A stretch of DNA of 57,020 nucleotides, taken from a virus. Its lineage: Duplodnaviria; Caudoviricetes. Location: the IMG/VR virus record IMGVR_UViG_3300037762_000135, positions 1 through 57,020 of that record; one strand, written 5' to 3'. Below are positions 8,810-9,751 of the stretch, piece by piece. The stretch's first letter is position 1; each line of letters starts with the position of its first letter. The notes beneath the pieces were generated by a model. It saw only the letters and a program-made list of their open reading frames with translations. It was not told where the DNA came from and ran no database searches. A program made the position numbers and the translations under genes.

Positions 8810-9109
8810 ATGGCAAATGACGAAATATTTCCCGGCTTTAATACACAATTGGAAACGGCCGTACACGCGGCCGTAACCAATGCGCTGGCCGACATTGACA
8901 CGGTGAGTCTGCAACGCTGCCAGACGCAGCTAGTGGAGGCCACGCAGAAGCTTGCGCACGCGCAGGCGCAGGCAGAGGTCTGGCAGGAATTGGCCACACG
9001 GCGCAAATCAGACATCTCCTCGCTACAAATCCAGGTTGAGGCGTTGAATACCCGCGTCGCGTTTCTGGAATCGGTTATCACCAACCTGAAGGCGGCGGCT
9101 GATGAGTGA
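8810..9109 (+). CDS. Coiled-coil protein
   Basis: GAGG RBS; heptad pattern. Confidence 0.55.
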   Translation: MANDEIFPGFNTQLETAVHAAVTNALADIDTVSLQRCQTQLVEATQKLAHAQAQAEVWQELATRRKSDISSLQIQVEALNTRVAFLESVITNLKAAADE

Positions 9110-9751
9110 CGGCGAGGAATTAATCCGGGCCGTCGAGCGGCTGTCGCTGACCGTTGAACGGCTGGACGGCCGTCTCGACAGCCGTTTCAAGGCGTTTGAG
9201 GAAGAGATCAGCGACCGGTTGGAAACCGTCGAGCGGCAGGTGGATGAGATCGGCAGCGGCCTGGCCGTGGTGTTGAATCGCAGCGAGGGCACAAAAAAAA
9301 AGTTGCCGGTCTTGCCGACTGGATTCAAAAGTTGGCTATCCGCCTCCGTAGAAGATTTGAAGCGTACGAGGAGCGTTTTGCAGCGCTGGAAAGCGCTACA
9401 TCAGTCGCAAGAGAAGTGGCGGCCGTTGTTTCTGAATCCGAAAGCGGGATTTTTATCATCCCGAAACGACAGACCGATACCGGGCGACTGAAAGAAACCC
9501 GCCGTAAGGAACAAGCGGCTCACCTGGCGGCCACAATGATGCAAGCCTACAGCCGGGCGGAACTGGCGCAGTTGTGTTTCGATCTAGGTGTTGATTATGA
9601 ATCTCTAGATGGTAACGAGAAGCAAGGAAAGATTCGGGCGTTGGTGCTGCACTTTTACCGGCGCAAAACAATGGACGTGTTTGCCGGTTTTCTGGAAGGC
9701 GACCGGCCGGAATGGGTATGGCGATTGAAGCCAGACAGCGAACAAGAGTGA
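9102..9751 (+). CDS. Coiled-coil plus EAD7-like (Death-fold effector-associated) domain, joined by a -1 shift at the A9 run (9293-9301)
   Basis: The -1 frame is open from the A-run through 9751; C-terminus YSRAELAQLCFDLGVDYESLDGNEKQGKIRALV..RP resembles the EAD7 consensus. Confidence 0.7.

Follow-up and report, generated by a model that had tools for sequence, protein, structure and literature searches.

Gene organization of the locus

The window analysed here is the whole 57,020-nt stretch of the viral record. Its plus strand carries a lysis cassette that consists, in order, of a holin-like gene, a coupled coiled-coil gene, a putatively recoded gene divided between two reading frames, a small membrane gene and a lysin gene (Table 1). 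The same module was compared in six related contigs (L002, L003, L004, L010, L005 and L006). ORFs nearly identical to the holin-like gene precede the module in L003 and L010, and L004 and L006 have other ORFs with transmembrane (TM) segments at this place. The coiled-coil protein encoded directly upstream of the divided gene matched no Pfam family above the cut-off. Its homologues in L002, L003, L004, L010 and L006 (88–108 aa) show the same overlap with the following gene. A complex prediction for the 99-aa protein and the N-terminal segment of the divided gene gave a score of 0.00 (mark 0.32), which counts neither for nor against an association. The small ORF on the downstream side has homologues of 38–55 aa in L002, L003 and L004, and L010 has a 43-aa TM ORF. 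In all loci with enough flanking sequence, the divided gene is located between the holin-like TM genes and the lysin gene.

Table 1. Positions of the genes and sequence features around the A9 run (numbering of the window).
Feature	Position	Strand	Remarks
Holin-like two-TM protein, 87 aa	8518..8781	+	Weak Phage_holin_10 match (E 0.096); first conserved cassette member
Upstream coiled-coil gene, 99 aa	8810..9109	+	Stop overlaps the ATG of the putatively recoded gene (ATGAGTGA)
0-frame N-terminal segment	9102..9302	+	67 codons; helical; ends in Thr-Lys-Lys-Lys
A9 run, putative slip site	9293..9301	+	Nine A letters; A9 at the frame junction also in relatives
-1 frame continuation	9302..9751	+	149 codons and stop; stalk helix, conserved motif, EAD7/Death-like domain
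0-frame tail past the run	9303..9491	+	62 codons in the window
Most conserved stretch of the family	9425..9490	+	P0001 residues 42-63, VVSESESGIFIIPK..TDTG.L; invariant columns
Helical-bundle domain	9473..9736	+	Approximately residues 58-145; Pfam EAD7 core 9530-9685
Small single-TM ORF, 42 aa	9755..9883	+	Directly follows the putatively recoded gene

Reading frames around the A9 run

The ORF starting at ATG 9102 contains the codons ACA AAA AAA AAG, within which nine consecutive A residues form the run. The run includes the heptamer A_AAA_AAA and, together with G9302, also A_AAA_AAG in the 0 frame. The -1 frame is closed by a TGA at 9245–9247 and is open from 9248 to the stop codon at 9749–9751. 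A preliminary description of this DNA had proposed a slippery site followed by a -1 continuation, and both are present as described. The junction has the features expected for either type of recoding: a heptamer of the form X_XXY_YYZ in the 0 frame, as in ribosomal frameshifting of the dnaX/IS type, and an A or T run of at least about 8–9 nt with a conserved length, as in transcriptional realignment of the kind known from Thermus dnaX, IS elements and mxiE. The peptide read in the -1 frame from 9302 is hereafter designated P0001. The only start codon in its frame ahead of residue 39 is a TTG at 9332.

The run is the sole A or T run of at least nine nucleotides in the window. With an A fraction of 0.254, approximately 0.25 A9 runs per strand are expected by chance in 57 kb. 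A single A9 in 57 kb is unremarkable alone; its placement exactly at the frame junction is kept in the relatives. In the database, all seven N-terminal ORFs end the shared segment with KKK and continue into unrelated tails. Past KKK, the 0-frame tail is 14 to 62 codons long depending on the lineage, and its end points differ; it is probably under no selection of its own.

Conservation of the run and of the frame break

The A9 run and the -1 continuation are present in all seven contigs for which DNA could be compared (the window and the six relatives), and the shift direction is -1 in each of them. The comparison of homologues proposed in the preliminary description thus shows a conserved slip site. 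The AT-rich clade, which has the same A9 and -1 layout, shares just 52% protein identity. The codon register of the run differs by clade. The GC-rich clade reads ACA AAA AAA AAG, with A9 beginning at the third position of a codon, and the AT-rich clade reads AGC AAA AAA AAA C, with A9 beginning at the first. The corresponding heptamers are A_AAA_AAG (and A_AAA_AAA) in the former clade and A_AAA_AAA in L005 and L006. In L003, L010, L002 and L005, the -1 frame opens just 2–4 codons ahead of the run.

Substitution patterns were examined on both sides of the junction. In the N-terminal segment of four relatives, 134 substitutions fall on position 3 of the 0-frame codons, compared with 43 and 22 on positions 1 and 2. 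Between 9416 and 9748, position 3 of the -1-frame codons carries 267 substitutions, compared with 96 and 95 on the other two. When the first 40 codons past the run were aligned between the window and L005, the -1 frame had a BLOSUM score of 74, the 0 frame one of 38 and the third frame one of 13. These patterns indicate that selection changes frame at the run and that both halves of the gene are under purifying selection. In the 38 codons past the run, the substitutions of the GC-rich clade are distributed as 42/23/39 by codon position, which does not single out the -1 frame, and the cross-clade differences are near saturation; this region is therefore counted against the recoding explanation.

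Among the close homologues in the protein databases, none of the 36 is an in-frame fusion of the two halves, and the longest is no more than 132 aa (lengths of 81–261 aa were searched). Because gene callers split the gene everywhere, the putative 216-aa product is missing from these databases.

Nucleotide sequences flanking the run

A GAGGG sequence is located at 9285–9289, and a hairpin can be formed between CCGGTC (9306–9311) and GACTGG (9317–9322). Both elements had been noted in the preliminary description and are indeed present in the window, but a role as stimulators does not hold up in the comparison, as the AT-rich clade keeps neither of them and the stability of the hairpin is at chance level. 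The 60 nt past the run fold with -13.9 kcal/mol (z = -0.5), and 64 of 200 shuffled sequences fold equally well. Across six loci, the z values of this segment are -0.5, 1.0, -0.5, 0.0, -3.0 and 0.0, and the consensus fold has -3.2 kcal/mol with a covariation term of 0.11. L002 has a disrupted hairpin and L005 has none, although both keep A9, and GAGG is missing upstream of the run in L005. A conserved combination of a Shine-Dalgarno (SD)-like element and a downstream stem-loop or pseudoknot was not observed in the compared loci, and a search for Rfam frameshift elements within 8700–10000 gave none. We propose that the slip site needs no conserved RNA stimulator.

Domain structure of the predicted -1 frame product

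Residues 77–128 of P0001 match the Pfam family EAD7 (PF19960) with an E value of 4.7e-16 and 58.8 bits (cut-off 32), covering positions 3–54 of the 62 profile positions. The EAD7 domain suggested from the sequence letters was thereby recovered by the HMM search. In a six-frame search of the record, this site scored 60.1 bits and was the only EAD7 match in the 57 kb. The domain is small and all-alpha, and no enzymatic Pfam family was detected, as is characteristic of EAD7. The most conserved part of the long product is the motif SESGIFIIPK..TDTG, which precedes the domain. The two halves of the gene matched no further family, and the sole additional element is the coiled coil upstream of the domain. 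Both the Pfam search and the AlphaFold2 (AF2) model thus agree with the earlier description of an effector-less protein. No membrane anchor or holin-like feature was found in the putatively recoded protein.

The two AF2 models have pLDDT values of 77.8 and 82.9 and contain only helices in residues 59–134. The bundle was modelled with only four long helices and one short turn, compared with the six helices that define the Death-like superfamily. Helix 1 of the bundle begins at residue 59, and residues 45–57 of the conserved stretch have pLDDT values below 50. In a domain-only VIA-align wide search, approximately 41 of the top 50 rows were CARD, PYD, DD or DED structures by title. The best match was the CARD of NOD1 (Z 6.9, rmsd 3.2, 73 residues aligned), and a bacterial death-like domain (8ss1; Z 6.0, rmsd 2.5, 72 residues aligned) was also among the rows; both Z values are below the level that the tool regards as safe for helical bundles. 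A vFLIP structure (5lde) was also among the matches (Z 5.1). A Foldseek search of the PDB with both models gave nothing at E <= 0.001. The Death-like fold postulated in the preliminary description is consistent with these CARD, PYD and death domain matches, whose Z values are modest.

Relatives of the protein and possible host

Distant relatives of 152–225 aa contain the coiled coil, the DTG motif and EAD7 in a single frame. Short relatives such as P0088 and P0049 have just 10–25 residues ahead of the motif. When the N-terminal segment was compared with the N-termini of the in-frame relatives, hhalign gave a probability of 1.3%, and an HMM of 10 in-frame relatives scored 6.1 bits on the segment of the window (maximum of 500 composition shuffles, 5.6 bits). 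These values are too weak to claim homology of the N-terminal parts, and the missing homology is counted against the recoding explanation.

Among cellular proteins, the closest relatives are EAD7 copies arranged in tandem on STAND NTPases and Roc-COR GTPases. Of the best cellular matches, the 10 that were tested all have 3–5 EAD7 copies; four are on nSTAND1 proteins and one is on a Roc-COR protein. The EAD7 domain shows 30–39% identity to the copies on nSTAND1, Roc-COR, kinase and FGE-sulfatase-domain proteins.

Searches with P0001 gave no match at E <= 0.01 in GenBank phages and nothing in PHROGs. The profile of the phage family detected no relative in genome contigs that were searched for prophages, and the profile of the in-frame relatives returned only the L010 contig in a wider viral search. 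The query P0126 returned only a cellular EAD7-pentapeptide protein from an Anaerolineae MAG. In the phylum of this MAG, the phage profile matched 4 of 401 genomes, only in long cellular EAD7 proteins, and four small EAD7 frames from genomes of the phylum are unlike the phage module. Separately, the ESM Atlas gave, as leads only, small EAD7 clusters labelled viral and Chloroflexota (scores 0.83).

EAD7 had been described as typical of Chloroflexi. The domain does occur in the phylum of the Anaerolineae MAG, but its distribution there is patchy (8 of 201 sampled genomes). The major capsid protein of the phage has matches of 60% and 54% in 2 of 401 genomes of the same phylum, compared with 53.7% for the best match in GenBank phages, and neither of the two genomes has a match to P0001. 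The capsid matches are a weak hint of a host in this phylum. No tRNA gene was found in the phage record.

Proposed mechanism and alternative explanations

We propose that the locus contains one gene in two frames, which would be expressed from ATG 9102 and coupled to the upstream coiled-coil gene. Straight reading would give a product of 129 aa, composed of a 67-aa helical head and an unconstrained tail. A share of the products would shift to the -1 frame at A9, giving a 216-aa protein with a long helical coiled-coil stalk, the conserved motif and the C-terminal EAD7 domain. From the observed layout and its conservation, we infer the slippage itself and a ratio between the two products. Programmed recoding at the A9 site appears highly probable on this basis. 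The shift may come from RNA polymerase inserting an extra A on the A9 template, or alternatively from slipping of the ribosome on A_AAA_AAG or A_AAA_AAA; we regard the two routes as nearly balanced, with a slight preference for RNA polymerase. The A9 run of Thermus dnaX supports transcriptional slippage, and in a reporter an A9 cassette led to 40% frameshifting, according to Antonov et al. (PMC3711429). Section 10 of the same article takes a common shift direction in all lineages to indicate slippage by the ribosome and not by RNA polymerase, and by this heuristic the uniform -1 direction in our contigs counts toward the ribosomal route.

From the EAD7 domain and its fold resemblance we infer binding and an anti-defence effect. 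The long form, which has no effector, would dock by homotypic EAD7 contacts onto the EAD7 arrays of host STAND NTPases or GTPases. This docking would stop effector recruitment at the time when the lysis cassette and the late proteins appear. The phage probably connects to this host EAD7 immune machinery or jams it. The decoy role, in which docking blocks effector recruitment late in infection, is put forward tentatively, as a possible rather than a probable function. The whole statement, recoding together with an EAD7 docking role, falls somewhat short of an even chance. A further elaboration seems doubtful: slippage at A9, most likely by RNA polymerase, may supply a fixed mix of bare and EAD7-tipped stalks, and the mixed oligomer may cap or poison host STAND/GTPase EAD7 assemblies. 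If true, a whole family of uncultured phages would have, in such an oligomer, a bacterial-virus equivalent of the pyrin-only and CARD-only proteins of viruses; recoding would set its valency, and its expression would be linked to the lysis cassette.

The same recoded protein may instead serve lysis, with the EAD7 tip recruiting or triggering host EAD7-linked death effectors or timing the holin, an idea also raised in the preliminary description. The position of the gene between the holin-like genes and the lysin gene agrees with this role, and late expression with the cassette is as compatible with lysis as with a decoy function. EAD7 mainly recruits effectors, as stated by Kaur et al. (PMC7159879), which is also in its favour. 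However, the protein lacks an effector, a membrane anchor and any holin-like feature, and the sole experimentally characterised phage protein consisting only of a Death fold is, to our knowledge, an inhibitor (bioRxiv 10.1101/2023.05.28.542683). Because EAD7 is patchy in the phylum of the Anaerolineae MAG, an EAD7-dependent lysis step would often miss its target. We therefore consider a lysis role unlikely, although it deserves some weight.

Two translationally coupled genes would account for the frame break without recoding. The 0-frame ORF (105–129 aa) would then be complete, an EAD7 protein of approximately 110 aa would be made from an internal GTG, ATG or TTG by termination-reinitiation, and A9 would merely encode Lys-Lys-Lys. 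A GTG or ATG of the -1 frame shares nucleotides with the 0-frame stop (GTGA/ATGA) in L002, L003 and L004, a classic coupled layout. Gene callers annotate ORFs of 108–132 aa in 35 clusters, short relatives such as P0088 and P0049 are genuine, and the codon-position signal directly past the run is ambiguous. Against these points, L010 has ATA and L005 has GTA in place of the candidate start, and the 0-frame stop of the window lies 75 nt further on, so that there is no common start or overlap; a start codon position in the -1 frame shared by all lineages was not found. In every lineage, the open and conserved part of the -1 frame extends on from the run, and in four lineages the frame is closed 2–4 codons ahead of it. 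The A9 length is also kept across clades that are saturated with changes at other codon positions, and in 16 long ORFs AAA makes up 55% of the Lys codons and ACA 25% of the Thr codons. Two coupled genes are consequently quite improbable compared with programmed recoding.

An artefact or decay is a still weaker explanation. Homopolymers are error-prone and our data are assemblies and contigs, and the run might in truth be A10, the gene a pseudogene, or the run length subject to phase variation at the DNA level. An assembly error (A10 or A7) had been named as the finding that would leave only the domain. In our comparison A9 was read in all eight assemblies, and A10 or A7 in none of them. The run is A9 in the seven separately assembled contigs and in the assembly that Logan made independently from the probable source run (0 differences). 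A contig from a second study also has A9, and there is no indel at the run among contigs of two runs. As the frame break is kept in every relative with DNA, recoding is favoured over assembly error. Since all eight assemblies read A9 and none A10 or A7, DNA-level phase variation, suggested earlier as a source of dosage control, is likewise disfavoured at the level of assembled contigs. That none of the 36 homologous clusters is in frame, and that both halves appear to be under purifying selection, also speaks against an artefact or a pseudogene, which we regard as very improbable.

Finally, an intrinsic terminator for antisense transcripts on the minus strand (stem 9319–9305, then T9), with an incidental frame break, was listed as terminator-like in a consensus scan but was rejected as having a negligible chance of being correct, because the stem has just 5 pairs, L002 has it disrupted and L005 lacks it even though A9 is still there, and the region has 4 terminator-like sites compared with a shuffle mean of 9.7.

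Comparison with known systems

The wiring of bacterial NLR-like immune proteins to effectors by EADs is a prediction that is not known to have experimental proof. A viral EAD7 protein that lacks an effector would be a natural probe of this wiring. EADs were proposed to couple proteins by homotypic contacts (Kaur et al., PMC7159879). The phage protein has the same Pfam domain, well above the cut-off, as the EAD7 components of conflict systems (PMC7159879, PMC8195603). It differs from them in being a single copy without a core component, effector or signalling domain. Because there is just one EAD7 match, the 'EAD principle' of paired copies (PMC7159879) does not apply within the virus record. 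A phage EAD7 protein with a recoding site was not found in the passages of the literature that were searched.

The closest functional parallel is pCARD, a CARD-only protein of 141 aa from Acinetobacter phage 133, which is encoded beside rIIAB and inhibits a CARD-dependent gasdermin system (bioRxiv 10.1101/2023.05.28.542683). pCARD resembles our protein in being a small phage protein with a Death-fold-like adaptor as its sole recognisable module and no effector domain. The protein described here differs in its EAD7 domain, its long coiled-coil stalk, its place in the lysis cassette and the putative -1 shift at A9, and its inhibitory effect is hypothetical. If it inhibits, it would extend the sole tested phage Death-fold decoy to a second adaptor family and to Chloroflexota-type conflict systems. 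Poxvirus pyrin-only proteins (POPs), CARD-only proteins and DED proteins such as vFLIP likewise consist of a Death-fold adaptor alone and disturb immune assemblies built on homotypic contacts, but they belong to eukaryotic viruses and have neither a sequence relation to the phage protein nor recoding.

The site itself resembles those of dnaX summarised in PMC3711429, both in the type of slippery sequence (A9 in Thermus thermophilus and A_AAA_AAG in E. coli) and in short and long products that share an N-terminus. In contrast to dnaX as described there, the putative shifted product is the longer, domain-bearing one, an SD and hairpin of the E. coli type are not conserved, and the gene family is unrelated.

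In long-tailed phages, the tail assembly chaperone genes G/GT use a -1 frameshift at a site between the tail tube and tape measure genes. The phage EAD7 gene is similar in that it is a late gene with a conserved, putatively programmed -1 shift, which may set how much of the short and of the extended protein is made, but it is a different gene with another position, in the lysis cassette, and another function. It would add a well-conserved case of recoding beyond dnaX, IS elements and tail chaperones. Because the two clades keep the length of the run and not its codon register, the family provides a clean test bed for distinguishing transcriptional from ribosomal slippage.

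Reading frames and the EAD7 domain

The virus record of 57,020 bases looks complete and carries direct terminal repeats; among its genes are those for a terminase, a portal and a major head protein. Its sole run of at least nine A or T residues is the A9 at which the 0 frame gives way to the −1 frame. P0001, the −1-frame peptide that follows the run, matches Pfam EAD7 (PF19960), a predicted adaptor domain, at residues 77–128 with 58.8 bits against a cut-off of 32, and a six-frame search showed this to be the single EAD7 of the record. The positions, frames and peptide in the preliminary description were all correct, and its EAD7 call was confirmed by this profile search.

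Coordinates of the features at and around the frame break (window positions unless a contig is named)
Feature	Position	Strand	Remark
0-frame ORF	ATG 9102 to 9491	+	ACA AAA AAA AAG across A9, then 62 further codons
−1 frame	TGA 9245–9247, then open to stop 9749–9751	+	149 residues (P0001) from 9302
A9	9293–9301
EAD7	9530–9685
Terminator-like element	9305–9319	−	hairpin, then T9
Stop-start overlap GTGA/ATGA	L002 3115–3118, L003 3115–3118, L004 3112–3115		window equivalent ~9414–9417
Most conserved stretch	9425–9490		SESGIFIIPK..TDTG.L
Predicted hairpin	L010 3201–3260		~27 nt after A9
135–162 aa protein	10096–10503; L002 3590–4078; L003 3580–4050
Putative replaced cassette	10692–13836		ORF 10692 at its 5′ end
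HNH gene	10809–11492	−

Conservation of the frame break

Protein-guided searches of viral and metagenome contigs gave six further contigs, seven in total with the window. Four are IMG/VR records, and L007–L009 and L011 are duplicates of these: L002–L004, which form a GC-rich clade with the window, share 72–81% identity with it in the C-terminal part, and L010 shares 74% in the N-terminal segment. The other two, L005 and L006, are ENA contigs of an AT-rich clade (52–59% identity) and are nearly identical to each other in their overlap. The junction is exactly A9 with continuation in the −1 frame in 7/7 contigs; the slip site of the preliminary description is thus conserved in its homologues. 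The Logan assembly of the probable source run reproduced the stretch with 0 differences. A contig from a different study, which spans 8975–9370, has 32 substitutions relative to the window, and its sole indel is a 3-base insertion behind 9100, away from A9.

The protein database held 37 matches to P0001. Close relatives account for 36 of them and are 95–132 aa long, with no close homologue exceeding 132 aa in a search that admitted 81–261 aa; the remaining one, an EAD7-plus-membrane protein, is unrelated. In each of the seven matches to the 0-frame ORF, KKK closes the conserved part and a dissimilar tail follows. The C-terminal third of one 95-aa relative (P0038, from a MAG labelled Chromatiaceae) diverges completely beyond the midpoint of the EAD7 core, which could reflect a further frame break in this copy.

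Substitutions were counted by codon position among the window and L002–L004. On the 5′ side of A9 the counts for the 0 frame were 43, 22 and 134 at codon positions 1, 2 and 3; in 9416–9748 those for the −1 frame were 96, 95 and 267. The first 38 codons after A9 were less clear within this GC-rich comparison (42/23/39 by codon position). Between clades the −1 frame fits best: over 40 codons after A9, the BLOSUM score of the window against L005 was 74 for this frame, with 17 identities, compared with 38 for the 0 frame and 13 for the third. Over the first 15 codons five of the seven to nine differences from L010 lay at −1-frame position 3. The analysis shows the A9 break to be kept in both clades, with selection acting on each side of it.

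The −1 frame is closed 2 codons 5′ of A9 in L003 and L010, 3 in L002 and 4 in L005, and its first start differs between lineages. The TTG at codon 11 of the window is CTG in L002–L004 and in the second-study contig, and codon 39 is GTG or ATG in the window and L002–L004, ATA in L010 and GTA in L005. The −1-frame conservation, the late opening and the unshared start codons therefore argue that the stretch directly after A9 is coding, lacks a start of its own and is reachable from the upstream ORF alone. We regard programmed recoding at A9 as likely. Slippage by either polymerase or ribosome would yield the same product of 216 aa, consisting of 67 residues through Thr-Lys-Lys-Lys and the 149 of P0001.

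Two coupled genes in place of one recoded gene would be an improbable arrangement. The usual sign of such coupling is seen in L002–L004, where the 0-frame stop and a −1-frame GTG or ATG overlap, whereas this candidate start, codon 39, is not GTG or ATG in L010 and L005. At the equivalent position the window has lost the 0-frame stop, extending the frame by 25 codons, and L010 reads ATA-A. In some lineages a short EAD7 protein may also arise by termination-reinitiation, alongside slippage. The constancy of A9 in every assembled contig is not what an error of assembly, an isolated pseudogene or a DNA-level on/off switch would produce, and these readings appear disfavoured.

Mechanism of the shift

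In the 0 frame, A9 contains A_AAA_AAG in the GC-rich clade or A_AAA_AAA in the AT-rich clade, and both classical routes, ribosomal frameshifting and transcriptional slippage, fit the site. The shift is −1 in all lineages, and section 10 of Antonov et al. (PMC3711429) treats a uniform direction as a mark of ribosomal frameshifting. The length of nine A's is conserved but the codon register is not: in one clade the run opens on the third base of Thr ACA, whereas in the AT-rich clade it opens on the first base of a Lys codon and the third Lys codon is AAA rather than AAG. In 16 long ORFs of the phage, AAA makes up 55% of Lys codons and ACA 25% of Thr codons. Runs of more than seven A's are described as known substrates of transcriptional realignment, the Thermus dnaX site being A9, and a reporter with an A9 cassette gave 40% shifting (PMC3711429). 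Because length rather than register is kept, AAA and ACA usage is modest and A9 is a known realignment substrate, we lean slightly towards RNA polymerase as the slippage agent, with the ribosome a serious contender.

No conserved stimulator was found: the consensus fold of six loci reached −3.2 kcal/mol with essentially zero covariation, the downstream 60-mers folded no better than shuffles in five of the six, and the search for an Rfam frameshift element was negative. The stimulators suggested in the preliminary description did not hold, as the 3′ hairpin CCGGTC-N5-GACTGG is broken in L002 and absent in L005, and the GAGG of its upstream GAGGG is missing 5′ of A9 in the AT-rich clade. On the minus strand, the same hairpin scores as terminator-like, with a 5-pair stem that is not conserved in relatives. 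L010 alone has a strong predicted hairpin after A9 (−25.5 kcal/mol, z −3.0, 1/200 shuffles), which may be a lineage-specific stimulator.

Predicted structure of the product

The AlphaFold2 model of P0001 with 14 relatives (mean pLDDT 77.8) has a long helix at residues 2–45, extending the N-terminal coiled coil, and a helical bundle (59–82, 85–95, 107–120 and 124–134). The low-confidence residues 45–57 between them hold the most conserved motif of the family, SESGIFIIPK, followed by TDTG, which opens the next helix. This stretch is predicted to be partly disordered and may serve as a docking peptide or cap helix 1; distant relatives with a single frame have a DTG version of it.

A domain-only model (95 residues, 40 rows, pLDDT 82.9) was searched against 48,161 PDB representatives. 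By title, about 41 of the 50 listed matches were CARD, pyrin, death or death-effector domains. The best listed was the NOD1 CARD (Z 6.9, rmsd 3.2, 73 aligned), and cPOP1, a vFLIP and a bacterial death-like domain (Z 6.0, rmsd 2.5, 72 aligned) were also listed. Results for the whole-protein model agreed, with Z up to 6.2; all these Z values lie below the caution line of the tool for helical bundles. Foldseek returned nothing significant for either model. The Death-like fold proposed in the preliminary description is therefore supported as a resemblance, not as proof. Kaur et al. (PMC7159879) describe EAD7 as an all-alpha domain that is a probable relative of EAD1 and EAD6, and call it "structurally comparable" to Death-like domains.

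Relatives and possible host

An exhaustive search without a profile yielded 785 proteins at E ≤ 0.001, the closest long relatives being cellular proteins with 3–5 tandem EAD7 copies. Among 10 of these scanned, nSTAND1 is present in four, accompanied in one case each by a kinase and by an FGE-sulfatase domain; another is a Roc-COR GTPase, and the remainder are EAD7 arrays with or without EAD1. Small proteins of 152–225 aa from this search, one of them labelled as derived from a Chloroflexota MAG, carry a coiled coil, a DTG motif and EAD7 in a single frame. The fused architecture therefore exists without recoding in distant kin; homology between their N-terminal halves and that of the window gene was not demonstrable.

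No P0001 relative was found in GenBank phages. In the phylum to which an Anaerolineae MAG belongs, 8 of 201 sampled genomes contained EAD7, compared with 0 of 14 controls. The best capsid matches were 60% and 54% in two genomes of that phylum versus 53.7% in cultured or deposited phages, a hint at this phylum as host rather than an assignment.

Gene neighbourhood and possible function

All loci with enough flank share one gene order: holin-like membrane gene(s), an 88–108 aa coiled-coil gene with its stop in overlap with the next start, the recoded gene, a 38–55 aa single-TM gene, sometimes a 135–162 aa protein with a signal-anchor-like N-terminus, and a large lysin-like gene. This constant order makes the recoded gene a standing component of a late module associated with lysis.

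In the proposal of two papers (PMC7159879; PMC8195603), EADs use homotypic contacts to link effectors with STAND, vWA-MoxR or GTPase cores, and EAD7 is placed among the effector-recruiting EADs. The domain of the window protein is a member of the EAD7 family, but the protein differs from EAD-coupled conflict systems in two defining features, having no paired copy and no effector, and is best classed as a viral derivative reduced to the adaptor. With the adaptor present and effector and core absent, a decoy competing for host EAD7 homotypic contacts is the simplest reading, which we advance tentatively. Overall, the interpretation in the preliminary description is borne out in part. The coiled-coil stalk would make the protein multivalent, and recoding would set how many stalks bear an EAD7 tip. 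Late co-expression would fit the decoy role, since terminase, portal and other late proteins are what STAND-type Avs sensors recognise. A lysis-linked use of host EAD7 effectors seems unlikely, and the remaining probability lies with roles that we do not name.

The sole tested precedent is pCARD, a CARD-only protein of Acinetobacter phage 133, which is described as lowering gasdermin cleavage and partially rescuing phage from a CARD-dependent system (bioRxiv 10.1101/2023.05.28.542683). The putative decoy would be a new variation on this idea; the gene family is new and its slip site is of a known kind. Literature searches found no paper on a phage EAD7 protein or its A9 recoding site, which supplementary lists could hold.

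Two further observations concern the flanking genes. The conserved 135–162 aa protein has a hydrophobic, Cys-containing N-terminus and matched no Pfam or PHROG family; it may have a lysis function not yet recognised. ORF 10692 resembles the 777-aa lysin-like protein of L003 at the N-terminus, with 71% identity over its first 34 codons. Unrelated sequence follows, then the HNH gene and a 770-aa GH+M23 protein without homology to the big protein of the relatives (28% over 98 aa only). This region looks like a cassette replacement with a leftover 5′ remnant.
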